Source: Dehalococcoidia bacterium
Lineage (GTDB): Bacteria > Chloroflexota > Dehalococcoidia > SZUA-161 > SpSt-899
Direction of reading: 5' to 3'
DNA: 64,000 bases
NCBI GenBank assembly: GCA_046484125.1
Contig: JAWOBX010000036.1
Span: 226 to 64,225, forward strand
In this document: positions 1 through 12,620 of the stretch, piece by piece
Layout: the number at the start of each line of letters is the position of its first letter
How positions within the stretch are numbered: the stretch's first letter is position 1
The notes under the pieces: model-generated
Databases searched by the model: none
What the model saw: the letters and a program-made list of their open reading frames with translations, nothing else
Told to the model about the DNA's origin: nothing
Translations under genes and position numbers: made by a program

Positions 1-247
1 AAAAGGTTCCCACACTAGATGAGACAATCCGGATGCAATTACCAAATACGCGCTTTTAATATTGACCATCAGCAAATACCCGTGATATCCTTTTACCAAA
101 ATTTAGTTATTCAACCTGGAAACCAATTTGAACTGCAACGGGAGTCATTGCAGTATATGGGTAACAATAGAGCATCCAGCTTTTATGAGCCTTATTAGTA
201 ATCCGCTGCGTCGGATGTCATTGTCTGTGATATATAAGGGAGAGGCT

Positions 248-2959
248 ATGCGGGCGAATCACTTTGAAGCCACCAGAACAAGTGATTGGGGATTGCTGAT
301 ATATCAGTTCGGAAATAGCGATGTATACTTTAATGACGAGGGACCATTACCCCGCATAGAGAACTTTGCAGCGCACCTAGAGTTGCTCGCGACGTGTCTG
401 AACGAAGGTGGAGGAACTCCCGTTCCGGTGAACGGGCCTTCGGGGAGCCCCTCAGGGATTGACATCAGTGATTTTCAAGAGAGCCGGCGAACAATATGTC
501 GCAGGGCCAAGAATGATGAGGAACCGGTTATCGTGAATAATTTCCACTTCCCGATTCTTAGTGAAGTACTGCGTAATATTATTTTTTCATACCCTAACTT
601 AACATCATGGAAGATATGCCCCATCCTTACTGATCAAGAACCCAGGCAGCACCAGGATACGCGCGATATCATTCCGCTGTTAGTAACCTACCTGCAAGCC
701 TTCGAAAAGGTTTCTCACTGTTTTGAGCAGGTTGACCCTATGATTATAGAAAAGGAACCTCACAATTATAATACCGTACTGGAGTGTTACGAGTATTTCC
801 GCAATCAGCTTGAACCGAAGGTCCGCGAAGCCCGGGCGGTATTGTTCAACATTACTACTGGTACACCTGCAATGAGCTTTGCCGCTGGACAGATTTTTGC
901 CACCAACCCACGAATCAGCTTCCTTTATTCCCCGTGGAACGAATCCCCAAAGCCGTTGGAGATCAAGGCTTTTCACCAAAGGGTTAAGGCGAACACTCTT
1001 GATAAAGTACGCCGCATGCTGGCGCGATATGAGTTCCAGGGAGCGGCTGATGTGCTGGAATCGGAGGATAACGGATTCAGAGAGGAAGACATCGGTAACT
1101 CCCTGCAAATAATAAAGGCCCTGGCTGCCTGGAAGAACTATGATTTTACCCTGGCAAATAAGCTTCTGAAAGATTACCAGCTATTTTCTGAGGTAACACC
1201 AGGTATGAAGTCGGTATGTGAAAGGTTATCTTCCGAACAGGATCCCTTTACACCTGACTTCTGGCAGGCCAAGCTCCAGGACGTAGTTGCCCGGATGGAA
1301 GGGGACGTTTATAGCGAAGCTTACGCCGATTTGCTGGTGCATCTTCACAATTTTCATGACGTTTCTCTGCAGCGGGCGCTTAACTACCAATACCCAAATA
1401 TAAATTTTTCCGAGAACCAACTGGGAGATGATATATTAAGTCAACTCGGCGAAATCCACACAGAACATGTGCCTATAGACCAAAAGAAGTTGTACAGAGA
1501 GAATGATAGATTCCATTTTGTTTACTGGTTAAACTCAAAATACGGTAATGATCATTTCTTCAAACAGTGGTTTGAATGGTACGAAATATTCAGGTGGTTT
1601 AAGACCCAGTATGTGGATGAAAAACGTCATGAACTCATCCATACATCGCTCAACCTCCAACGCGCGTTTTATGATAACATCATCGGAAATTGGATAACGG
1701 TCCCCGAAAACCATGGCCCACGGTATTTGCTGGCGCTTGTACGTAGAAGTCTGCCTGATGATTCCTATCGGTGTCACATCCCCGGGCTGATCGAATCGGT
1801 TTGGTCGGCTCTGAATTCTGAAATGGAGTGTGACGAAATTTTACCTGATATCTCAGCCTCCAACGAGGAGATATTGGTCTCCAAACTCGAAGAAAGTTTT
1901 GGCAATATGAAAAACAGGGAGGTTGACACTATCGTTAAGTTCCTTAACGATTGGAAAGATAAGGAGCTTTCTGTTGATATAGAAAGGCTTACCGTTAATG
2001 CCCAAATGAAGCAAAAAATGAAAGATGAGCTGGAAAAGAGCGGAATAAAGCCTTTACCTCAATGGAATTATCTCATCCATGAGCAAGGTAAAAAAGAGGA
2101 TGCTCAAAAAGAGTTTAAAGTAGGCATGCTTACCCGGCTTCATCCCTGTTTGCAACCCGAGCAGAAAAAGACCCAAAATGAAGTGCGGTCAGCTTTGATA
2201 GCATATTTGAAAAACGAGAAAACCCTTGAAGAGGTATTCCGCACCTACTGCTCTCCGAAAGACAGCAGGAAAAAGTCAAGTTCTACCGGAAAGGCGGCAA
2301 ATTCTACCCGTAAAAAACCGGGATCGCAGCCCAAAAATGGCGAGAGGAAAGAGCCACTGAAAAACATTATACTAAAAAGCAATACTGTAAAAACTGAAAT
2401 GACCAGTTCTGCGGCGCTGAGCACCAATAACATCATCACCTCGGCCACTGCTCACGGAATCCTGGTAGCGGCTTCACTGCTTCGATTGGAGGGAATAAGG
2501 GAAGAAGTGAGTGTCTATTTTCATCTCAGCGAGTGTGTGAAACAGCTCGAGCAAGTTAACCGGGTCACGGTAAAGTACATATATTTAATCGGACTCGATT
2601 CGAATGCTATTGATAGAGATTCATGGGTAAGCTTTGTAGAAATGGTGAATAATAAAGAATTCAACGTACGTCTGTTCAATAAGAATAGAGAAGTTCAGAA
2701 AATCATACGGGGCGCACACCCGCAAAACGAAACTGAATATTGTTCAATTGAGTTCATCGAAACCGGTTATCCAGTATGGATGCGGGAAAAGTACCTGGAG
2801 GAACTACAAAACGATAAGAAAGCCGATACTTACTTGAAAGCAGTCAGGGCTAACTCCCGTGATAATTCGCTGTTTTCTCAGGCCAGGCAGGCCGTTGATA
2901 ATGGTAAAGATGAACCGATGAGACTGGTCTTAGAGTTGATTTCCCGACAGGACGAATGA
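248..2959 (+). CDS. Large hypothetical protein (~904 aa from ATG 248; ORF open from 128) with a CARF-like Rossmann signature (NITTGTPAMSFAAG) and an uncharacterised C-terminal region
   Basis: Long ORF. GGGAGAGG ribosome-binding site 6 nt before ATG 248. 'N-I-T-T-G-T-P-A-M-S' resembles the CARF strand-4 motif DxTxGTKAMS of Csm6-type proteins. A R-x4-H (KRHELIH) motif and an HG...SEC pair lie in the C-terminal half. 4-nt gap to the next gene. Confidence 0.5.
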   Translation: MRANHFEATRTSDWGLLIYQFGNSDVYFNDEGPLPRIENFAAHLELLATCLNEGGGTPVPVNGPSGSPSGIDISDFQESRRTICRRAKNDEEPVIVNNFHFPILSEVLRNIIFSYPNLTSWKICPILTDQEPRQHQDTRDIIPLLVTYLQAFEKVSHCFEQVDPMIIEKEPHNYNTVLECYEYFRNQLEPKVREARAVLFNITTGTPAMSFAAGQIFATNPRISFLYSPWNESPKPLEIKAFHQRVKANTLDKVRRMLARYEFQGAADVLESEDNGFREEDIGNSLQIIKALAAWKNYDFTLANKLLKDYQLFSEVTPGMKSVCERLSSEQDPFTPDFWQAKLQDVVARMEGDVYSEAYADLLVHLHNFHDVSLQRALNYQYPNINFSENQLGDDILSQLGEIHTEHVPIDQKKLYRENDRFHFVYWLNSKYGNDHFFKQWFEWYEIFRWFKTQYVDEKRHELIHTSLNLQRAFYDNIIGNWITVPENHGPRYLLALVRRSLPDDSYRCHIPGLIESVWSALNSEMECDEILPDISASNEEILVSKLEESFGNMKNREVDTIVKFLNDWKDKELSVDIERLTVNAQMKQKMKDELEKSGIKPLPQWNYLIHEQGKKEDAQKEFKVGMLTRLHPCLQPEQKKTQNEVRSALIAYLKNEKTLEEVFRTYCSPKDSRKKSSSTGKAANSTRKKPGSQPKNGERKEPLKNIILKSNTVKTEMTSSAALSTNNIITSATAHGILVAASLLRLEGIREEVSVYFHLSECVKQLEQVNRVTVKYIYLIGLDSNAIDRDSWVSFVEMVNNKEFNVRLFNKNREVQKIIRGAHPQNETEYCSIEFIETGYPVWMREKYLEELQNDKKADTYLKAVRANSRDNSLFSQARQAVDNGKDEPMRLVLELISRQDE

Positions 2960-2962
2960 GTT

Positions 2963-3817
2963 GTGAAAAAGAAGGTTGTAATACAAAAAATTGACCTTGA
3001 TACCTGCCTGACAGCATTCATCCTCGATGTTTCTGAGGAAGATGATGTTGTATCAGTTCAGTCGCAGGCAACGGATGAAGATCTGCGCAATCCTGAAGTC
3101 ATCTGTATTGAATGCGGGGGAAGTGGTCAGGTTCATTTGAACAACTTCGACCACCATGAAAGTGGAGTTTCCGAGCCGGCCTGCCTGCAGGTATTCAAGC
3201 TGATAGACGGCAGTTCGGAACTGGAAAGAGTGGTGGAATATGTTGCGAAGGTTGATACTGATCCAAAATCTATAGAACAACCTGACCGACCGGATTTCAT
3301 TTCTCTTTCCAGCCTTTTCTCCGGAATGCTTCTAGAACAAAAGGATCCGGGGCGGCAGCTTTTTGAAGGAATGGGTATATATGAAACGATCTTAGCTGAG
3401 GGAATTGATCCGTTCGGTGCCATGCCTCGGCTGTCGGAGTGGGAAGATTATTTTCAGGCCAAACAAGCCAATAGACTGTTACTCAGCCGGGAAAGTGCTC
3501 GAGTTGAGGTGTTTGAAACCGCAGGAGGCCTTAAATGCGGCTACTTGGAAAGTGAAGTCATTGGAGGACCCGGATTGATCTACAACAAGGGCTGCGATGT
3601 TGCTATTGTGTATAGCACTGAATTTGGTGAGGCAAAAATCCCTAAATTCACCATTGCCGGGAAAAACGGCATCAGGGTTGATGGATTGCTTGCCAGCCTG
3701 AACGAACTTGAGCCAGGTTGGGGCGGACCCGGACACGGGACAATTATTGCTTCACCAAAGACCGGGAGCTGGCTTCCGGCAAAAGAGGTATGCCGCATTG
3801 TGTCAAGGAACCTTTGA
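2963..3817 (+). CDS. DHH/DHHA1-family phosphoesterase-like protein (NrnA/nanoRNase-like fold)
   Basis: Motifs DLD (motif I-like), NNFDHHE (DHH motif III) and a C-terminal GWGGPGHG (DHHA1 GGGH-like) are present. Translationally coupled to the upstream gene. Confidence 0.5.
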   Translation: MKKKVVIQKIDLDTCLTAFILDVSEEDDVVSVQSQATDEDLRNPEVICIECGGSGQVHLNNFDHHESGVSEPACLQVFKLIDGSSELERVVEYVAKVDTDPKSIEQPDRPDFISLSSLFSGMLLEQKDPGRQLFEGMGIYETILAEGIDPFGAMPRLSEWEDYFQAKQANRLLLSRESARVEVFETAGGLKCGYLESEVIGGPGLIYNKGCDVAIVYSTEFGEAKIPKFTIAGKNGIRVDGLLASLNELEPGWGGPGHGTIIASPKTGSWLPAKEVCRIVSRNL

Positions 3818-3912
3818 TAAATATAATCGCTGTTCGAGCGATCAGACTGGCGAAACTATCACATTGAAAGGGCAATGCTATAGACAATTTCACACCAGTC
3901 GAATTACTCCCG

Positions 3913-3936
3913 AAAACAGCGTTTCAAATACAAAGG
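3913..3936. repeat. Copy a of a recurring intergenic motif AAAACAGCGTTTCAAATA(C/T)AAA
   Basis: Near-identical copies at 31585-31608 and 37674-37696. Partial AAAACAGCG cores at 3993-4001, 4028-4036 (reverse) and 37561-37569. Confidence 0.5.
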
Positions 3937-3977
3937 AATTCACCCTGCGGACGTCTTGTGAAATTGGGAACAATCCG

Positions 3978-4036
3978 TTTTCCCCTGACCGGGGAAAACA
4001 GCGATGCTGATATGCATCCGAATCAATCGCTGTTTT
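3978..4036. promoter_or_regulatory. Nested palindromes upstream of the sigma-factor gene: an 8-bp stem hairpin (TTTTCCCC-5nt-GGGGAAAA) and an 11-bp perfect inverted repeat (AAAACAGCGAT-N20-ATCGCTGTTTT)
   Basis: Read directly. Arms at 3978-3985/3991-3998 and 3995-4005/4026-4036. Lies about 75 nt upstream of ATG 4110. Confidence 0.35.
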
Positions 4037-4109
4037 AGGGTTACTTGCAGGTATTGACATGCCTGCTTCATTACTGTAAGATACCCTGATTGCCTTCTGG
4101 GAAAGATTC

Positions 4110-4892
4110 ATGGCCATAAACGAAAAATATAGTTATCTCACAGAAGAACTTTTCCAGGCCTGGCAGGGGGGTGACTCCACTGCCAGAAATATCTTTTATG
4201 AAGCAATTTTTGATTATTACTGGCCGGTTATAACTAAAAAACTTGGAGAGAAGTTTATCAGATATGACGATACCGTTAATGTTTTTTCGGAAGAACAAGC
4301 AGCGGCAATGGATATAATTGAAAAGGAATTTGATTTTTTTGAAAATAAACACCTTAATAATAAGGAAAAATTTATAGGGTGGCGTGACCCTGGCCAGTTT
4401 TTCGGCTATCTATGGAAGAACCGACTGGTACGACTTATATACGATTATTGGCAAGATAAGCCAAAAAGACCAATCTCGGGAGACGAACCGATTTATTTAG
4501 ATGATGAGAACGAGACAAGCATTCTCGATCAACAGATAAGCGGAGATTTTGATCCAGTCGATGAGGTAGCCAATGAGGATCTCAAACAACAGTTAATCCA
4601 GTGGATATTGAATAATAAAGATAGAGTCTCAGTAACAAACTGGTTGACCCTGGGCGCGTATTGTGTTGCATTGACTGAAGGTTACAATAATCAAGGCAAA
4701 GGCAAGCACGAGTTTAACGCTAGAGTCGCTGAATTGATGGGAATACCTGTTGGGAACCAGCTCAGGACGAGAATCAACCATATGTTGAATCAAATCAGAG
4801 ACATTATGAAGGATACAGGTGATTGGGAGCAATTTCGCTATTTTTTTGAAGATAGTGATGATGAAAACGGTGGTGAAGATGAGAATGGGTGA
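4110..4892 (+). CDS. ECF-type sigma-70 family RNA polymerase sigma factor with an internal insert and an acidic C-terminal tail
   Basis: The N-terminus (EELFQAWQGGDSTARNIFYEAIFDYYWPVITKKL) matches sigma-70 region 2. A region-4 helix-turn-helix (AELMGIPVGNQLRTRINHMLNQIRDIM) is present. The C-terminus is DE-rich. Confidence 0.6.
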   Translation: MAINEKYSYLTEELFQAWQGGDSTARNIFYEAIFDYYWPVITKKLGEKFIRYDDTVNVFSEEQAAAMDIIEKEFDFFENKHLNNKEKFIGWRDPGQFFGYLWKNRLVRLIYDYWQDKPKRPISGDEPIYLDDENETSILDQQISGDFDPVDEVANEDLKQQLIQWILNNKDRVSVTNWLTLGAYCVALTEGYNNQGKGKHEFNARVAELMGIPVGNQLRTRINHMLNQIRDIMKDTGDWEQFRYFFEDSDDENGGEDENG

Positions 4893-4994
4893 AATGAAAT
4901 GTCGTTTACAGCCGCTAGATTATTATGGAATTGTAAATCAGCATATTTTGACTGAGTAGCAAGATGGGATAAAAATAATACTGGTGAAGAAAGA

Positions 4995-7397
4995 ATGAGT
5001 TCGGAAAAGGCACTAACGTGTACTCAATACGCGCCGTATATATTTGATTACATCGAGGGGGCGCTTGATCAGGAACAGAAATTATCTGTAGCCTCTCATC
5101 TATCGCGGTGCACCGATTGCCTGCAACTGCTAGCCACTTTGAAGCAGAAACAGGCAGACTATACAGATGCACGGCCGATTGGCGGGATACTGACGCTAGA
5201 TCTTGCCGATAGATCGGTTATCGATGATATTGTTCAATATCTATTGCATAATGAGGCCCAGCAGAAACATATCGGGCTATGCAATATGCTGATATCGGCG
5301 CAATGGCAACTGCGTTCCCTGTGGCTGTTACAGGGGCGGCTATACAACGAGCTGCGCAGACAGGGGAAAAAGGCGATGATGATCTCCCCTGTAGTACTGC
5401 CGGAAATCATGACAGAAGGAATAGAATCATCAGAATGTGAATATATCTTGATATATAACATCGGGCATTTTCCTGATTGCTGGGAAGCGATTCAGGAGTT
5501 ATCGGCGGCAGGCATTAATGTCGTTGCCAGTATTAGTGAGAACGATCTGCAGCTTGGTGAGGAATTGAGCCAGGGCGTTGTTACGGCGAATTGTCATATC
5601 ATATCATTTGCGAATAGAGATCCGGCCACGGTTTATGCTACAGAGCAAAACCGGTTTAATCAGTACCTGAACCAGCGAAAATCAGCACTGATCAATGAAC
5701 TGAATCAGCGCCCGGATATTAAGGAACTGGTCGCGTATCTATATTTATTTGACACTTTGGGAATCGCGGCACCGGCTTCACTGCTGGCTCGAATCCTCAA
5801 AACGGATGAAAATGAGATAATAATGAGCCTTGATGGTACGACTTCACTAGCCTATAGAATCAGGAAAAAGCCTCCAGTATTCTATTGCACTGAAAACGAG
5901 CTTGTAGCCAACGCCATGCGCCATGAACTAATCAAAGACGCTGATCGGGAAAACAAATACAAAGGCATCATAGCGGCAGCCGGGCCCCAAAATAGAGATG
6001 AATCCTTCACAGTAATGATGCTCTTTCACATGCTCGAAAGGCGAGGCGAGCGGATACTCGCCAGAAATCTGTATAAGGATAATCAGGAACAAATCGAAAA
6101 TCTATGGAAAGAACTGGGTGCGCGGGAACTCGTTTCATGGGGTATTACATTGCGTGATCTCTGCCTGTATGAGGGTGCCAAGAATGTGTTGAGGAAAGGC
6201 ATTGAAAAGCAACCAGAAAATATCTATCTTCGGCATGCTCTGGCTACTGTCATGGAAAGACAACGTAAATATCCCGAAGCGGAAGCCGAATTCCGTCAGG
6301 GATATGATATAGATCCAGACAATATCTTCTTGCTCCAGGCCTGGGGCGATATGGAACGGAAACGATCTGTTCAAAGCCGAACAGAGGACAGGCGCAGTGA
6401 GGCCCTCGGACTTTTCCAGAAAGCTCAGTCTATTGATCCTGAAAATCTGCATGTTCTGGTGTCACTGGGGAACCTGGAAGCTGAGACCGGTGACCATCGA
6501 ACTGCTACCGATTACTTCGATAGAGCACTGGAAATTGATCGTTATAACCTTTACGCATTACATTCCAGGGGAGAATTGTTTAGGAGGCAACGGAAGTGGG
6601 CCGAAGCCGCTTCCGATTATGAGAAGGTTATTGAAATAATGCCGAAAAACGTTCCGGCTCATCATGCACTGGGGCAGATTGATTTGGAGCGGGGTCATTT
6701 TAAAAAGGCGATGGAGCGTTTTCATAAGAGAATTTATAAAATTGATCGGGAAAGTAAATATACCCTTCATTCTATCGGTAACCTGTACATCGAACTGGCT
6801 GATATTACTGGTAATGATAATTACATGAGCAATGCGTTCAATTACCTTGAACGTGCCCGCCAGGTCGACCAAGAAAACATTGAAACCTATACTTCGCTGG
6901 CCAAGCTGGAGAGAAAACAGGGCAACTATACAGCGGCGCTGGAAAATCTCAATTTGGCGGAAAACAGGGATCCTGAAAACCTCTACGTGAAGTTGGGACG
7001 TGTGGAGGTGCTGAAGGCCCAGAGGGATATGGATAGAGTAACAGAACTGGCATATCAAGTACTTGATGATAATCCGAAAAACGTAGTAGCTATGGTATTG
7101 TATGCCAAGCTGAGAGCGGAAAGCGGGTTCTACGATGAGGCGCGAAGACTCCTTAAGGATGCCAGAACGATGGATCCCGGGAATCTTAGAATATACAATG
7201 ACTGGGGAGAAATGGAAGCTTCGGTTGGTAATTATGAAAAGGCGGTAGAAATACTAGGTGATGCTCTTGATATAGATGATGAAAACTCCTATGTTAATTT
7301 GAAGTATTCCGAGATACTCAAACGATTGGGGAACTTTGATGAGGCAGAGGAGTACCACAAGAAAGCAGGCAATTTAATGGGGTTGGATAGCTTGTGA
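4995..7397 (+). CDS. Putative anti-sigma factor: N-terminal zf-HC2 zinc finger followed by about 15 TPR repeats, with no transmembrane segment
   Basis: The N-terminus CTQYAPYIFDYIEGALDQEQKLSVASHLSRCTDCL fits the zf-HC2 anti-sigma pattern. The remainder is degenerate 34-residue TPR repeats. Sits immediately downstream of the ECF sigma gene. Confidence 0.55.
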   Translation: MSSEKALTCTQYAPYIFDYIEGALDQEQKLSVASHLSRCTDCLQLLATLKQKQADYTDARPIGGILTLDLADRSVIDDIVQYLLHNEAQQKHIGLCNMLISAQWQLRSLWLLQGRLYNELRRQGKKAMMISPVVLPEIMTEGIESSECEYILIYNIGHFPDCWEAIQELSAAGINVVASISENDLQLGEELSQGVVTANCHIISFANRDPATVYATEQNRFNQYLNQRKSALINELNQRPDIKELVAYLYLFDTLGIAAPASLLARILKTDENEIIMSLDGTTSLAYRIRKKPPVFYCTENELVANAMRHELIKDADRENKYKGIIAAAGPQNRDESFTVMMLFHMLERRGERILARNLYKDNQEQIENLWKELGARELVSWGITLRDLCLYEGAKNVLRKGIEKQPENIYLRHALATVMERQRKYPEAEAEFRQGYDIDPDNIFLLQAWGDMERKRSVQSRTEDRRSEALGLFQKAQSIDPENLHVLVSLGNLEAETGDHRTATDYFDRALEIDRYNLYALHSRGELFRRQRKWAEAASDYEKVIEIMPKNVPAHHALGQIDLERGHFKKAMERFHKRIYKIDRESKYTLHSIGNLYIELADITGNDNYMSNAFNYLERARQVDQENIETYTSLAKLERKQGNYTAALENLNLAENRDPENLYVKLGRVEVLKAQRDMDRVTELAYQVLDDNPKNVVAMVLYAKLRAESGFYDEARRLLKDARTMDPGNLRIYNDWGEMEASVGNYEKAVEILGDALDIDDENSYVNLKYSEILKRLGNFDEAEEYHKKAGNLMGLDSL

Positions 7398-7425
7398 TAA
7401 GACTAATGTCGGCAAATGAAAAAAA

Positions 7426-7449
7426 GCACCCGTTTCGGGTGCTTTTTTT
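7426..7449 (+). terminator. Rho-independent terminator after the anti-sigma gene
   Basis: GCACCCG-TTT-CGGGTGC stem-loop followed by TTTTTTT. Confidence 0.7.
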
Positions 7450-7625
7450 ATGGGATTGAAATGATTTGTGGTGGGCTGAGGCTTATATATTTAGAAAGAT
7501 GATTACAGAATCAAAAGAGCGAAAAAATTGGCATTTGAATTATTCCGGGGAATAAGCGGCTTTTAATAATGTGGAGAGGATGATATCGGGGCAGGGTATT
7601 TCAGAAAAATTTCAGGAGGCAAACC

Positions 7626-10600
7626 ATGAGACAGCCAACAATTTTTAACAGGGTAATTTTCGCAATCATATCATGCTTGCTGGTGGTTTCGGTGTTCGGG
7701 ACGTTTCCGGTTATGCTGGCGGGGGCAAGTGGATTTAATACCGGGGACACAGTCAAAACAACCGATCTGCTGAATGTTCGAACAGGGCCGGGACTCAGCT
7801 ATGACGAAATCTCGGACCCTGATTATGCCGCCAACAACTGGTGCGCACCCGCAGGGGAGGAAGGTGTTGTTCTCGCCGGACCTTCCTACGCGGATGGATA
7901 TACCTGGTACAAAATTGATTTCGGCCCTGGATTGTATACCGGGTGGTCGTCTGATCATCGCCTCGTAAAGGTGGAGGCACAAACGTTTTCAGCCGGCATC
8001 GTCGATTATGTGCCTACCAGCATAACAGAGGTAGAGGCTGGTGATTCGGTGACCATTGGTGCGAGTTTCGTCAACACCGGTAATACCGCCTGGCAATTCG
8101 TAGCCGGGGCCACGGTGTGGGATTCCAATGGGAATCAGGTGGCCAATTACAGCGAGACTCTTTCCAGCGCGCTGCAGCCGGATGAGCAGCATACCGTTAC
8201 CTGGCGCCATCCGGTAACTACTGAAGGCGATTACTGGGTCCAGTTTGGGGTATGGAAAGACACCCCCTATATATCGGAGAATTTACTGGATAAAGCACCC
8301 AGTCCATCGCAAAAGCTTATTTCAGTAACAGAACCTCAAGTTGTAGATAATGCACCCCCTGTAATTGAGAATCTTTCTGCATATCCATCTTCCATAACCG
8401 AAGGCGAAAGTGTGACGATCTCATTCTCGGTGAGTGACAGCGGTGGAAGCGGCCTGAACCGGGCTGAGTTGTGGAAAAAGTTTGGCTCTGGTAACTGGGA
8501 AGAGGTTGATCATAAATATTTAAACGGAGACCAATCTGAAGGAAGTTTTACAGATATACCTCAATCGGCAGGTAACTTTCAGTATAGTCTTCACGTGGCC
8601 GACAATGCCGGGAATCTGGTCTCTGAAGATCGGCAGGTTGAAGTCGAAGCAGATGAACCAGAACCGACGGTTTCGCCTGTTCAACCGGACCCCGCGGATA
8701 TAATTCCACCTTCGGTTGATTACTTCAACATATCACCGACCGAGATATCACCGGGCGAAAGCGTTAATGTCGATTACACTGTCTCCGATTCAGGTAGCGG
8801 TCTTAAAACAATAGAACTCTGGAGAAAGCGCGAGGCAGGGAGCTGGGAAATAATAGACCTCACGGTTATCGATGGTACTGGCGATACTCACACAACCAGC
8901 TTTATTGATAGCCTGACTTCAAGTGGCACATTTTACTATGCGCTCAATGTTTTTGATAAAGATGGTAATCAAGTTTATGAGGAATACGGCACGTCGGTAC
9001 TTGTGGTTGAGAATGACCCAACTACGACGCCAACTCCCACACCAACTGAGCCATCACCCGAATTAAACCAGCCTCCCTATGTTCCTGAAAACCCTTTCCC
9101 CGCCGATGGCGAAAGCGGGATTAAAGTCAACTCAATCCTGAATTGGAATGGCGGAGATCCTGATGGTGATGCTGTTTTCTATGATGTTTACCTAGAAAAG
9201 GAAAACTCTTCCCCGGATAAACTGCTTGTGGAAAATCTCACACATACTAGTTTTGATCCCGAAAATCTTGAATATGACAGCCACTACTACTGGCGAGTGA
9301 AAGCAGAGGATACTAAAGGCAATGTGGCGGAAGGTCCTGTGTGGGATTTCTATACCGATTCCTGTCCAGTGAATATATCCGCCCAAATTGATTCTTATAT
9401 TCCTTCGGGTTTAACGGAGGTAGAGGCTGGTAATCCGGTGACCATTGGAGTGAGTTTCGCCAATACCGGTAATACTACCTGGCAATTCATAGCCGGAGCG
9501 ACGGTGTGGGATTCCAACGGGAACCAAGTGGCCAATTACAGCGAGACTCTTTCCAGCGCGCTGCAGCCGGATGAGCAGCATATCGTTACCTGGAGCCATC
9601 CGGTAACTGCTGAAGGTGATTACTGGGTTCAGTTTGGGGTATGGAAAGACACCCCATTTATAGCGGAGAATTTGCTGGATAAAGCCCCCAGTCCATCGCA
9701 AAAGCTTATTTCAGTAACCGAATCTCCTGTTGTAGATGATACCTCCCCTGTAATCGAGGATCTTTCTGTATACCCATCTTCCATAACCGAAGGTGAAAGT
9801 GTGACGATCAATTTCAGTCTCAGAGACCGCGGAGGCAGCGGGTTGAAACAAGTGGAGTTATGGAGGAGGCAAGATACGAGTGATTGGCAGGAAGTGAATC
9901 ATAAGAAGATTTCCGGGAACTATTATACCGGCACTTTCAGCGATACCCCGCCATCAGCGGGCACCTGGGAATACGGACTTCACGTATTGGACAACGCAGG
10001 TAACATTACCTATGAGGATCAGCCGTTAAGTGTTCTGGTGGAAGAACCGGAACGGACGCCTTCACCCACGCCTTCTTCTACTCCAACCCCGTCAACCCAT
10101 CCGTATCATACTGATTTTGATTTGCACAATATGTTTGGCTTTGACAATGGCTCGATAACCGGATCGGATATTGAGAGTTACATTTCAAGCACATACCCGA
10201 CCTCTCCCATGCTACAGGAGAAGGCAATCGGAGATGCGTTTATCAATGCCGGACAAGAGTACCAAGTGAACCCTGCATTTTTAGTTGCCACTGCTCAACA
10301 TGAAGGTGGTTTTGGCACGTTAGGCTGGGCCAGTTCCCATTACCACTGCCACAACACTATGGGTTGGTGTGTTAACCCTGATCACCCCCATCCGGATAGC
10401 TGCAACTGCTACGATAGCTGGTCAGATTGCATACAAACGACAGCAGAAAGAATAGCCAACGGACCGTACTATTACAGATATTCCCCGTCAAGAGAGACTG
10501 TGGACGAAATAAGAGACGTATATGCAGAACACAAGAATACCGATACTATAGTGCGATATATGAATGATCTGTACTGGTTTTCTCAGGTCGACGTAGATAT

Positions 10601-11990
10601 CACCAATTGGGGGCCGACGGAAATAACCGTCGAAGCACGAAAATCTGCCGATAACGATATCAAAGTCAGTTATGAGTTAATTGATAAGAATAACAAAGCT
10701 ATCGAAATACCCCATGTGGCACATGCGAATCCTCCGTCAGTCAATTTAAATGGTCAATCACTAACCTTAGGTTCGTCTAATTTAGTTTTTCTGCATATTT
10801 GTTTGATGCCTCAAAATAATAGTAATTTGGATGAAATTAATGACATACGATTAAGAATAGTATTTCAGGGAGAAAAGCTGCGTCGCGTATATTATTTGGA
10901 ACCCGGTTTTGACAAAATTCTAAACATTGTTAGTTCGGGATTTGATATTACTCGTGATGGCTACAGCTTTTCAAATAATTCGTTCAACAAGGGTAAATGT
11001 TACGGCATGGCTGCAACGAGCATACTTTATTTCAATGACGAACTGGCAAGGCCATCTGGTTTTAACACTACATATGCTCTCGATACTAACACCGCGGAAC
11101 CGGCTATTGATAGATATCAAGATGAGCCTTTTCTAAACAATATCGATGACAGATCCGCATTGTTCGAGGACAACAAACTAGATATGACGGAATATGCCGA
11201 ATTAAGACGAATTCTTGGTCAACGGGGACCAGTCATAGTTATCCTACACCAGGGAATACTCACCGGGCATCATGCGGTGGTCGCTTACAAGCTAATTGAA
11301 GAGGACAATAAATCATACATTGCAATATACGATCCAAACTGGCCGTATAAACCGGTACCTAGCAACATTAAAAACGCTTTCACTTATATTGAATATGATC
11401 ATCTGACCAATGAGCTTGAGTATGGCGACTATAACCGTTTCAAATTTATTGAGGCGCGGAAGGACCCTTGGTACCAGCGTATAGAAATATTCAGTCCGGC
11501 GGAGGTTAGAGTTCGCGATTCCCAGGGCAGAACTACGGGAATGATAAACGGTCAAATTTTAGAGGAAATACCTTTCTCTTGCTACGATAATGAAACTGAG
11601 ACAGTTACTGTTTACCACCCTGATGATACGTTTATGTACGAAGTCGCTGGTAATGATAACGGATATTATGGTTTGGAGATCACATCAACAGAATTTGGTA
11701 AGACAAAGACAATTACCCTCAATGATGTACCTACCACCGGTAATTCGTCTCATCTTTACTCTATAGACTGGAAGGAATTAACTGCCGACGGTCATGGTAT
11801 CACCGTTGAGATCGATTCTGACGGAGACGGTATATTTGAAGAGAAAAGTATTCCGAACAAGAAAAGTCTGACTGTCATAACAGATAAACATGTGCCGGCT
11901 GGCAAAGCTGACGACCGGTGGAGTAACTGGGGAATTGCCATTGTGATAATTGGCCTCGCCGCTGTTGGCTACGTCGTCTTAAGGTTATAG
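7626..11990 (+). CDS. Giant secreted, membrane-anchored multidomain protein: signal peptide, SH3b, two ~145-aa repeat modules (plus a related third Ig-like module), FN3, a glucosaminidase-like muramidase domain, a papain-like (C39_2/CHAP-like) Cys peptidase and a C-terminal transmembrane anchor
   Basis: N-terminal signal peptide, then an SH3b-like segment (LNVRTGPGLSY...GWSSDHRLVKV). An FN3-like segment (YWRVKAEDTKGN). ATAQHEGGFGT resembles the glucosaminidase LESGWG motif. GKCYGMAATS...GHHAVVAY...YDPNWPY resembles a Cys-His-Asp peptidase. The C-terminal hydrophobic helix is followed by RL. AGGAGG ribosome-binding site. Confidence 0.7.
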   Translation: MRQPTIFNRVIFAIISCLLVVSVFGTFPVMLAGASGFNTGDTVKTTDLLNVRTGPGLSYDEISDPDYAANNWCAPAGEEGVVLAGPSYADGYTWYKIDFGPGLYTGWSSDHRLVKVEAQTFSAGIVDYVPTSITEVEAGDSVTIGASFVNTGNTAWQFVAGATVWDSNGNQVANYSETLSSALQPDEQHTVTWRHPVTTEGDYWVQFGVWKDTPYISENLLDKAPSPSQKLISVTEPQVVDNAPPVIENLSAYPSSITEGESVTISFSVSDSGGSGLNRAELWKKFGSGNWEEVDHKYLNGDQSEGSFTDIPQSAGNFQYSLHVADNAGNLVSEDRQVEVEADEPEPTVSPVQPDPADIIPPSVDYFNISPTEISPGESVNVDYTVSDSGSGLKTIELWRKREAGSWEIIDLTVIDGTGDTHTTSFIDSLTSSGTFYYALNVFDKDGNQVYEEYGTSVLVVENDPTTTPTPTPTEPSPELNQPPYVPENPFPADGESGIKVNSILNWNGGDPDGDAVFYDVYLEKENSSPDKLLVENLTHTSFDPENLEYDSHYYWRVKAEDTKGNVAEGPVWDFYTDSCPVNISAQIDSYIPSGLTEVEAGNPVTIGVSFANTGNTTWQFIAGATVWDSNGNQVANYSETLSSALQPDEQHIVTWSHPVTAEGDYWVQFGVWKDTPFIAENLLDKAPSPSQKLISVTESPVVDDTSPVIEDLSVYPSSITEGESVTINFSLRDRGGSGLKQVELWRRQDTSDWQEVNHKKISGNYYTGTFSDTPPSAGTWEYGLHVLDNAGNITYEDQPLSVLVEEPERTPSPTPSSTPTPSTHPYHTDFDLHNMFGFDNGSITGSDIESYISSTYPTSPMLQEKAIGDAFINAGQEYQVNPAFLVATAQHEGGFGTLGWASSHYHCHNTMGWCVNPDHPHPDSCNCYDSWSDCIQTTAERIANGPYYYRYSPSRETVDEIRDVYAEHKNTDTIVRYMNDLYWFSQVDVDITNWGPTEITVEARKSADNDIKVSYELIDKNNKAIEIPHVAHANPPSVNLNGQSLTLGSSNLVFLHICLMPQNNSNLDEINDIRLRIVFQGEKLRRVYYLEPGFDKILNIVSSGFDITRDGYSFSNNSFNKGKCYGMAATSILYFNDELARPSGFNTTYALDTNTAEPAIDRYQDEPFLNNIDDRSALFEDNKLDMTEYAELRRILGQRGPVIVILHQGILTGHHAVVAYKLIEEDNKSYIAIYDPNWPYKPVPSNIKNAFTYIEYDHLTNELEYGDYNRFKFIEARKDPWYQRIEIFSPAEVRVRDSQGRTTGMINGQILEEIPFSCYDNETETVTVYHPDDTFMYEVAGNDNGYYGLEITSTEFGKTKTITLNDVPTTGNSSHLYSIDWKELTADGHGITVEIDSDGDGIFEEKSIPNKKSLTVITDKHVPAGKADDRWSNWGIAIVIIGLAAVGYVVLRL
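8024..8456 (+). repeat. Intragenic direct repeat, copy 1 (~433 bp), with very high nucleotide identity to copy 2
   Basis: Long identical runs, e.g. ggccaattacagcgagactctttccagcgcgctgcagccggatgagcagcata, occur in both copies. Copy offset is exactly 1390 bp. Confidence 0.8.
9414..9846 (+). repeat. Intragenic direct repeat, copy 2
   Basis: See copy 1. The encoded modules (AGIVDYVPTSITEVEAG... / AQIDSYIPSGLTEVEAG...) are near identical. Confidence 0.8.
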
Positions 11991-12089
11991 TAATATCCAC
12001 TGAAATGATTCTCCGTTACTAGTCGTTTTACTTAATAGAAGGGGCTGAATCTCTCGAACTGTCAGTCACTTTTCGGTAGGAGGTTAGAG

Positions 12090-12365
12090 ATGGCTATAGT
12101 AAGTCTGATAACAAGGACTCATTCCTGGGAGGTAATACCCAATAACGGTAGTTTTTTTGGTCGATATACCGACCATATATCTGGTAAGGCAATACAATTC
12201 ATGTATAACAAGGCGGACGACCATGCGAAATTATTCGGCAAGTACGAAATAGAAATACCTATCGGGAATAGCATTGCTGTTAATGTTCTGGATATGATGA
12301 TTAGCGAACGAGTATGGCTGCTCACCTGTGTTGACGAATCCATAAAATCAAAATCTCTCAAGTGA
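12090..12365 (+). CDS. Hypothetical small protein
   Basis: AGGAGG ribosome-binding site 7 nt upstream of the ATG. No recognisable domain. Confidence 0.35.
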   Translation: MAIVSLITRTHSWEVIPNNGSFFGRYTDHISGKAIQFMYNKADDHAKLFGKYEIEIPIGNSIAVNVLDMMISERVWLLTCVDESIKSKSLK

Positions 12366-12422
12366 ACTGGGAATTGAAAGATCAACCTACTCGGCAATGT
12401 TTATGTTAATAGGAAGCAGAAA

Positions 12423-12620
12423 ATGGGCATCATAAAAGCTCTCGTCAAAATATCCATAATTATCATCCTTTTCTGGTTCGTTTTCAGGCTTGGTGCGGTA
12501 GGTAGCGACCCTTTGTGTGCCGACACTTATTGCCAAGTGGTAAACCAGATGCTTGATGATGTACGTGAGCTCACTCATAATCTAGAGAAAGTATTATCGG
12601 AACACGAAAACGGCAGGTAA
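12423..12620 (+). CDS. Hypothetical small membrane protein
   Basis: AGGAAG ribosome-binding site. One predicted transmembrane helix. Weak support. Confidence 0.25.
   Translation: MGIIKALVKISIIIILFWFVFRLGAVGSDPLCADTYCQVVNQMLDDVRELTHNLEKVLSEHENGR

Follow-up and report, generated by a model that had tools for sequence, protein, structure and literature searches.

Type III CRISPR systems kill or arrest infected cells by means of messenger-activated nucleases, and transcriptional outputs are a recent addition to this repertoire. Three published routes lead from type III sensing to a sigma factor, and all of them are protease-based: CalpL, TPR-CHAT (TPR, tetratricopeptide repeat), and SAVED-CHAT with PCaspase. 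A 64,000-nucleotide stretch of DNA from a Dehalococcoidia bacterium (contig JAWOBX010000036.1, positions 226 to 64,225; hereafter the window) raises the question of whether a sigma factor can also be reached in another way. At its left end lie four genes, g1 to g4, which an earlier reading of the letters alone (the original prediction) had taken for a signalling cassette in which a CARF protein frees an extracytoplasmic function (ECF) sigma factor from its anti-sigma factor. The open reading frame (ORF) listing agrees with that description as to coordinates and arrangement: the genes are consecutive, lie on the + strand and are all intact. Our analysis indicates that they probably form the accessory end of a CRISPR-Cas locus of type III cut by the contig edge, comprising an RNase, a phosphodiesterase and a sigma/anti-sigma pair. 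This reading rests on domain identities, fold, conservation and genomic linkage, from which all activities are deduced.

Domain content of the four proteins

The first gene (g1; 248-2959, + strand, ATG start) encodes a 903-amino acid (aa) protein, followed by a stop codon. The protein matches the PADLOC profile for Csx1 (PDLC01509; 2.9e-22, residues 92-388) and that for Csx1/Csm6 proteins with CARF and HEPN domains (PDLC01031; 2.7e-19, with the alignment reaching residue 472), the two matches together spanning residues 21-472. The Pfam CARF models, CARF_Card1 included, fell below their cutoffs, and no other Pfam family matched above threshold. The CARF domain (287-1147, +; approximately residues 14-300) is delimited by the PADLOC match and by invariant columns. 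Its loop, TTGTPAMSFAAG at residues 203-214, does not vary among the aligned g1 homologs, and its motif matches the CARF motif of 8z4i. The CARF-like sensor of the original prediction was thus confirmed. The catalytic feature is the HEPN motif R460-H-E-L-I-H465 (R-x4-H; 1625-1642, +), invariant in the alignment. The surrounding YVDxxRHxLxH, in which R460 and H465 make up R-x4-H, is retained in four sequences at about 30% identity, and direct reading finds the equivalents of R460 and H465 in P0126, P0127 and P0129. Because this motif is invariant, the effector domain is read as a HEPN RNase and not as a protease. On its sequence, then, g1 is a Csx1-type CARF-HEPN protein with a predicted messenger-activated RNase activity.

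An in-frame TTG at position 128 offers an alternative start for g1, judged less likely than the ATG at 248 because the conserved N-terminus, LLIYxFGNSD, begins at residue 16. The NCBI annotation of the protein (808 aa, P0001) begins 95 codons late and omits this part of the CARF domain (residues 16-25). Relatives are rare: an indexed search returned three at about 30% identity, and an exhaustive HMMER search found 31 family representatives among 1.8 billion proteins. Like Csx1 and Csm6, g1 combines an N-terminal CARF domain, with a glycine/threonine-rich ligand loop, and a HEPN R-x4-H motif, and its relatives adjoin cas10 operons. It differs from them in belonging to a rare, long subfamily (about 720 aa) and in carrying, in addition, a C-terminal domain of about 200 aa seen nowhere else (2360-2956, +; approximately residues 705-903). 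This extension, absent from all relatives, showed no similarity to the g2 family (P 0.31) and no match among all ORFs of 139 loci. One apparent match to it, P0153, was rejected as a low-complexity tandem-repeat artefact.

The second gene (g2; 2963-3817, +) encodes a soluble, 284-aa protein whose predicted model (predicted local distance difference test score, pLDDT, of 95) has the two-domain DHH plus DHHA1 fold. The catalytic motifs are kept across 77 sequences: D11, D13, D63-H64-H65 and D98, with GGPGH in the DHHA1 domain. Fold and motifs therefore bear out the DHH/DHHA1 identity proposed for this divergent protein, and the accompanying guess that it turns over a messenger is probably correct. 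At 90% identity, the family to which g2 belongs falls into more than 300 clusters, none of which has a name. The ring-nuclease surveys consulted list Crn1-4 and Csx15/16/20, and no DHH family is among them. The g2 family is apparently an undescribed, CRISPR-linked family of phosphodiesterases.

The only DHH precedents are NrN, considered further below, and MAD, a Sulfolobus membrane enzyme. MAD is reportedly membrane-associated and is not known to have been described, in the original report, as part of a CRISPR locus, whereas g2 is soluble, 284 aa long and encoded within such loci. The two have in common their superfamily and a role, proposed in the case of g2, in messenger degradation; MAD is the membrane-associated DHH-DHHA1 nuclease with which Sulfolobus islandicus degrades cyclic oligoadenylate (cOA) (PMC7841402).

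The third gene (g3; 4110-4892, +) encodes a 260-aa protein laid out as sigma2-like helices, an acidic linker, and a sigma4-like helix-turn-helix (HTH) at residues 206-235. Its affiliation was reached through relatives. Genes in the equivalent position of three other loci, L079 (239 aa), L077 (280 aa) and L011 (242 aa), yield a profile that, with g3 left out, matches g3 at 2e-6. A separate sigma family, c12, found after g2 and a gene for a CARF-winged-helix protein, matches solved ECF sigma factors at 3e-8 and RpoE plus SigW at 87-91% probability. When the family of g3, L079 and L077 (with or without L011) was compared with c12, the two profiles, which have zero sequences in common, aligned over about 205 columns at 96-97% probability (E 8e-9 to 3.5e-10). 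RpoE and SigW also align to the g3 HTH (residues 206-235; P 1.8e-4). In a shuffle control none of 120 sequences reached the real g3 score of 35.8 (shuffle mean 13.3, standard deviation 2.3). These comparisons support the identification of g3 as a highly divergent ECF-type sigma-like protein by transitive homology. The ECF sigma factor of the original prediction is in this way backed by profile-profile comparison, though not by a direct family match.

The fourth gene (g4; 4995-7397, +) lies directly 3' of g3, the position of a cognate anti-sigma gene, and encodes an 800-aa protein. A zf-HC2 motif of the zinc-binding anti-sigma (ZAS) type occupies residues 9-42 (5019-5120, +; Pfam PF13490, 25.2 bits against a cutoff of 22.2) and includes H35-x3-C39-x2-C42; the same HxxxCxxC is present in the L011, L060 and L079 proteins. 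No hydrophobic segment was found in g4. The claim of a non-membrane zf-HC2/TPR anti-sigma factor withstood scrutiny on each of these points. The middle domain (5172-6149, +; approximately residues 60-385) is conserved in five relatives, with motifs GGLxxI, hhhhDDAP, VIATG and GIPLPxSLLAR. It had no match in Pfam (E<=1), among PDB sequences, or in eleven neighbour families that include all CARF types in hand. By inference it reads like a STAND/AAA-type NTPase devoid of a P-loop, followed by a winged helix. A TPR array (6174-7370, +), with many Pfam TPR matches, runs to the C-terminus. A metagenome scan with the alignment of the g4 N-terminus found nothing. To judge from these motifs, g4 is an anti-sigma protein of the ZAS type, cytoplasmic in location, most of which would serve as a large input module. 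It resembles RsrA and ChrR in its N-terminal HxxxCxxC and in the location of its gene directly 3' of that of an ECF-type sigma; it differs from them in being fused to a domain of about 320 aa and a TPR array of about 400 aa, and in being embedded in CRISPR loci.

Recurrence of the module in other loci

To place the genes in context, 52 genome loci, 80 metagenome loci and 4 loci from exact look-ups were gathered; their ORFs were clustered and the clusters named with Pfam and PADLOC. The order g2, sigma, zf-HC2-TPR is repeated in five other loci: L011, L045, L060, L077 and L079 (the last being the same locus as L141-143). In L011, a Csx1-type gene, cas2 and a fused reverse transcriptase (RT)-cas1 gene lie upstream of the module; in L045, the module is accompanied by csm5, csm6, cas6 and RT-cas1. 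The CARF-HEPN partner in these related loci belongs to a different Csx1/Csm6 subfamily and has no extension of the g1 type. The most complete example is found on a 532-kilobase (kb) contig (L140/L142; GCA_041478595.1), where cas10 (with GGDD), csm2-5, cas6, two small genes and a gene for a Csm6-like CARF protein are followed by the module, consisting of g2, a sigma of 239 aa and a zf-HC2-TPR protein of 786 aa. Beyond cas10, in the opposite direction, lie CRISPR arrays (37-nucleotide), cas2 and the closest relative of g1. Since the whole module stands here in a complete type III locus, what the window shows is most likely the end of one such locus with its ancillary genes.

Type III-A and type III-B loci contain relatives of g1 and g2 beside cas10. 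The closest relative of g1, P0126 (36% identity), begins 119 nucleotides (nt) from a 12-repeat CRISPR array, with cas2 and a csm operon adjacent. P0002 comes after cmr1-6 plus a Csm6-like gene, with cas6 next in order, and P0004 lies 3' of a RAMP fragment and a Csm6 gene. For g2, recognisable cas or CARF genes occur in 91 of the 127 loci that have the gene and in 64 of the 80 with at least 5 kb of flanking DNA, and a CARF gene lies within 1.5 kb of g2 in 71 of 127; these counts are lower bounds, drawn with hidden Markov models (HMMs) built from the same loci and with near-duplicate metagenome contigs included. The partners comprise Csx1/Csm6 proteins, CARF-RelE, a CARF-HD protein and a 700-aa tandem-CARF PD-(D/E)xK protein. 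They also include RtcR-like CARF-AAA+-HTH activators (28 loci), a CARF-winged-helix protein with an ECF sigma after it (20 loci), and Lon-CARF with a sigma (8 loci).

The commonest neighbourhood has the 700-aa tandem-CARF PD-(D/E)xK gene, then g2, then the gene for the RtcR-like CARF-AAA+-HTH sigma-54 activator (L020, L025, L027, L035, L050, L083-L088, L099-L106, L117-L127 and others), often in the vicinity of RT-Cas1 and of a type III-D-like effector whose RAMPs are fused. A 234-aa protein encoded beside Lon-CARF (c40) showed no sequence tie to CalpT. In L140, the Cas10 gene (4834-7467, - strand) keeps GGDD and encodes, by eye, an N-terminal LLCDIGR at the usual place of the HD motif, which suggests that this Cas10 is signalling-only. 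In L060, the g4-like protein (2261-5074; 937 aa) has about 135 extra N-terminal residues ahead of HxxxCxxC; these could represent what is left of a sigma, joined to the anti-sigma. Loci L004-L007 contain, at about 13.6-16.2 kb (locus coordinates), a cluster of Multi_ubiq, Prok-E2_E and ThiF (E1-like) genes beside a type III-B locus that includes g2; these genes make up a ubiquitin-like conjugation cassette such as occurs in defence islands. A ThiF gene is also present near the g1 relative in L140.

Release of the sigma factor and competing explanations

If g1 to g4 do belong to the accessory part of such a locus, the best-supported account of their products is as follows. On detection of target RNA, Cas10 would produce cOA, which would bind the CARF domain of g1 and switch on its HEPN RNase, as in Csx1/Csm6. 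The g2 protein, as a metal-dependent DHH/DHHA1 phosphodiesterase, would hydrolyse the messenger or its linear products and so reset the system. The ECF-type sigma g3 would be held by the cytoplasmic zinc-finger anti-sigma g4, whose NTPase-like and TPR parts would serve as the input module of a transcriptional arm travelling with these loci. Direct control by the messenger and an independent, TPR-sensed signal are both possible triggers of sigma release.

Several observations weigh against this reading. As already noted in the original prediction, no cas10 or cyclase gene is found in the window; nor did a search of the window reveal a CRISPR array, so that the cassette could be an orphan. The cut lies at most 231 base pairs 5' of window position 1, the contig being 64,231 base pairs long; housekeeping genes (panD, panB, ftsH, pit, phoU, pst) take over from 13 kb on, and a search of positions 1-247 for a remnant of a CRISPR repeat gave random 11-mers only. 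Motif II of g2 is E50 instead of D, the Pfam DHH and DHHA1 models do not match the protein up to E=10, and a sequence search with the family profile brings up no solved DHH protein. For g3, there is no direct match in Pfam, NCBIfam or PDB and no direct sigma HMM match, the protein is an orphan in a search of 5.8 billion proteins, and its single-sequence AlphaFold2 model is unusable (pLDDT 38.8), all-helical as it is (four helices, a 40-residue acidic linker, four helices). No CARF- or SAVED-like messenger-sensor domain was found in g4. The way in which the neighbourhood counts given above were obtained belongs here as well.

A bolder, two-part proposal would be that the g2 family, with its DHH/DHHA1 fold, makes up a new and widespread class of ring nucleases or oligoadenylate phosphodiesterases in type III systems, dedicated to loci with transcriptional output, and that, in the six loci of the present kind, an ECF-type sigma is governed by the messenger or the product of g2, with no protease involved, by way of an anti-sigma that combines zinc-finger, NTPase-like and TPR parts. 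We advance this conjunction tentatively and think it rather unlikely to hold in full. The cassette and its relatives draw attention to a large, uncharacterised DHH/DHHA1 family lying beside CARF proteins in most loci examined, and to a sigma/anti-sigma-TPR pair that recurs in these loci with no protease. Should g2 degrade cOA, a metal-dependent fold would join the ring-nuclease repertoire and estimates of the number of self-limiting type III loci would change. Should the sigma respond to the messenger, CRISPR sensing would be tied to gene regulation by a new mechanism; protease-free control would then add a fourth way for CRISPR sensing to reach transcription, distinct in mechanism from the three known.

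The coupling may be considered on its own, the sigma being released when the messenger or the g2 product acts on g4, at its middle domain, or on a complex of g1 and g4. In six loci the genes for g2, sigma and anti-sigma-TPR are inherited together with CARF-HEPN genes, g2 is found preferentially with CARF partners of the transcription type (the RtcR-like, CARF-winged-helix and Lon-CARF loci counted above), and the g4 middle domain is conserved while lacking a family match. Against this stand the failure to detect a CARF or SAVED signal in g4 and the fact that TPR-STAND-type proteins usually sense proteins or peptides, and we regard such coupling as doubtful.

According to a more sceptical explanation, the genes are chance neighbours or a decayed orphan island, the sigma and anti-sigma serving the envelope protein gene at 7626-11990 or a general stress response, with no link to CRISPR. 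ECF sigmas often regulate envelope genes, a gene for a 1454-aa secreted protein does lie 3' of the cassette, and the region from 1 to 12 kb, lying at a contig end, forms a low-GC island in which no cas genes are seen. Yet the gene order is repeated in five loci of different lineages, beside cas or CARF genes, a strong terminator stands between g4 and the gene that follows, and none of the four ORFs has decayed. We consider this explanation improbable.

Still less probable, in our estimation, is the model of the original prediction, according to which the messenger would activate the CARF protein, as a protease or a binder, to cleave or strip g4 and so free the sigma, in the manner of Calp or Craspase. 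Some facts speak for it: release by proteolysis is known for sigma/anti-sigma pairs of type III loci, the g1 extension of about 200 aa is unique and absent from relatives in loci that have no sigma, and other g2 loci have Lon-CARF beside a sigma. Moreover, the extension has a sub-threshold Pfam match to Peptidase_C97/PPPDE (E 0.035), and L060 encodes a Peptidase_C39 protein (561-1109; 5e-14) two genes 5' of g2. But the effector domain of g1 is HEPN, the PPPDE match scores 14.4 bits against a cutoff of 29.2 with no catalytic His in register, and the five other sigma/anti-sigma-TPR loci have CARF-HEPN partners lacking the g1-type extension. Searches of g1-g4 for Lon, CHAT, caspase and SAVED domains found none. 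A relay with the CARF protein as the agent that removes the anti-sigma is unsupported; the three published routes use a protease, and none is encoded here. Of the cassette interpretation as a whole, the link to cOA signalling has stood, relatives being located beside cas10 and the gene order recurring in five loci, whereas the release mechanism has not.

CalpL, CalpT and CalpS are a SAVED-Lon protease, an anti-sigma and an ECF-like sigma (PMC11229360). The cassette resembles them in its type III affiliation and in pairing an ECF-like sigma with an anti-sigma-like partner in the cytoplasm, a pairing that implies output at the level of transcription; it differs in that g1-g4 have neither Lon nor SAVED matches, its CARF protein is a predicted RNase, and its anti-sigma is an 800-aa zf-HC2 protein with TPRs. 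The type III-E Craspase system comprises gRAMP-TPR-CHAT (Csx29), Csx30, Csx31 and CASP-sigma/RpoE. Here the likeness lies in a sigma sequestered by a locus-encoded partner and in the presence of a TPR protein; in the cassette, though, the TPRs sit on the anti-sigma itself, CHAT is absent, no gRAMP or RAMP gene is found in the window, and target RNA would not act through a bound protease.

Finally, that g2 is an enzyme of the NrN type, the CorA-associated DHH phosphodiesterase that degrades SAM-AMP (S-adenosylmethionine-AMP; PMC10600005), and that the locus signals through this compound instead of cOA, is very improbable, since none of about 130 g2 neighbourhoods showed a CorA partner (no dedicated CorA model search was made), the partners are CARF proteins and the g2 profile detects no NrN by sequence; an oligoadenylate is therefore the more likely substrate.

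Transcription signals and flanking DNA

The spacing of the genes and the signals between them are those of an operon, possibly a divided one. Only 3 nt separate the g1 stop from the g2 start, while the g2-g3 and g3-g4 gaps measure 292 and 102 nt. A sigma-70-like promoter match lies 5' of g1 (62-91, +; TTGACC-18-TATCCT plus a TG extension) and a promoter-like site in the g2-g3 gap (4054-4082, +; TTGACA-17-TAAGAT), both being consensus matches only. Just 5' of the latter, at 3998-4037, an inverted repeat, ACAGCGAT ... ATCGCTGT, is followed by TTTT; it may separate transcription of g1-g2 from that of g3-g4. On direct reading, a strong terminator, consisting of a hairpin and a T-run (AAAAAAAGCACCCGTTTCGGGTGCTTTTTTT; 7420-7450), ends the cassette 3' of g4.

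The G+C content changes within the window, from 0.43-0.48 over the first 12 kb to 0.51-0.55 thereafter. The low-GC part contains the cassette and the gene for the giant surface protein, and the region (1-12500), at the end of the contig, has the appearance of an acquired island. The surface protein gene (7626-11990, +) lies beyond the terminator and constitutes its own transcription unit. Its 1454-aa product is secreted or anchored, with hydrophobic segments at both N- and C-terminus, and contains two near-identical internal modules (approximately residues 120-340 and 580-800), DUF7743/CARDB domains, a weak glucosaminidase match and, at the C-terminus, a papain-like Cys/His pattern (GKCYGMA ... 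TGHHAVV).

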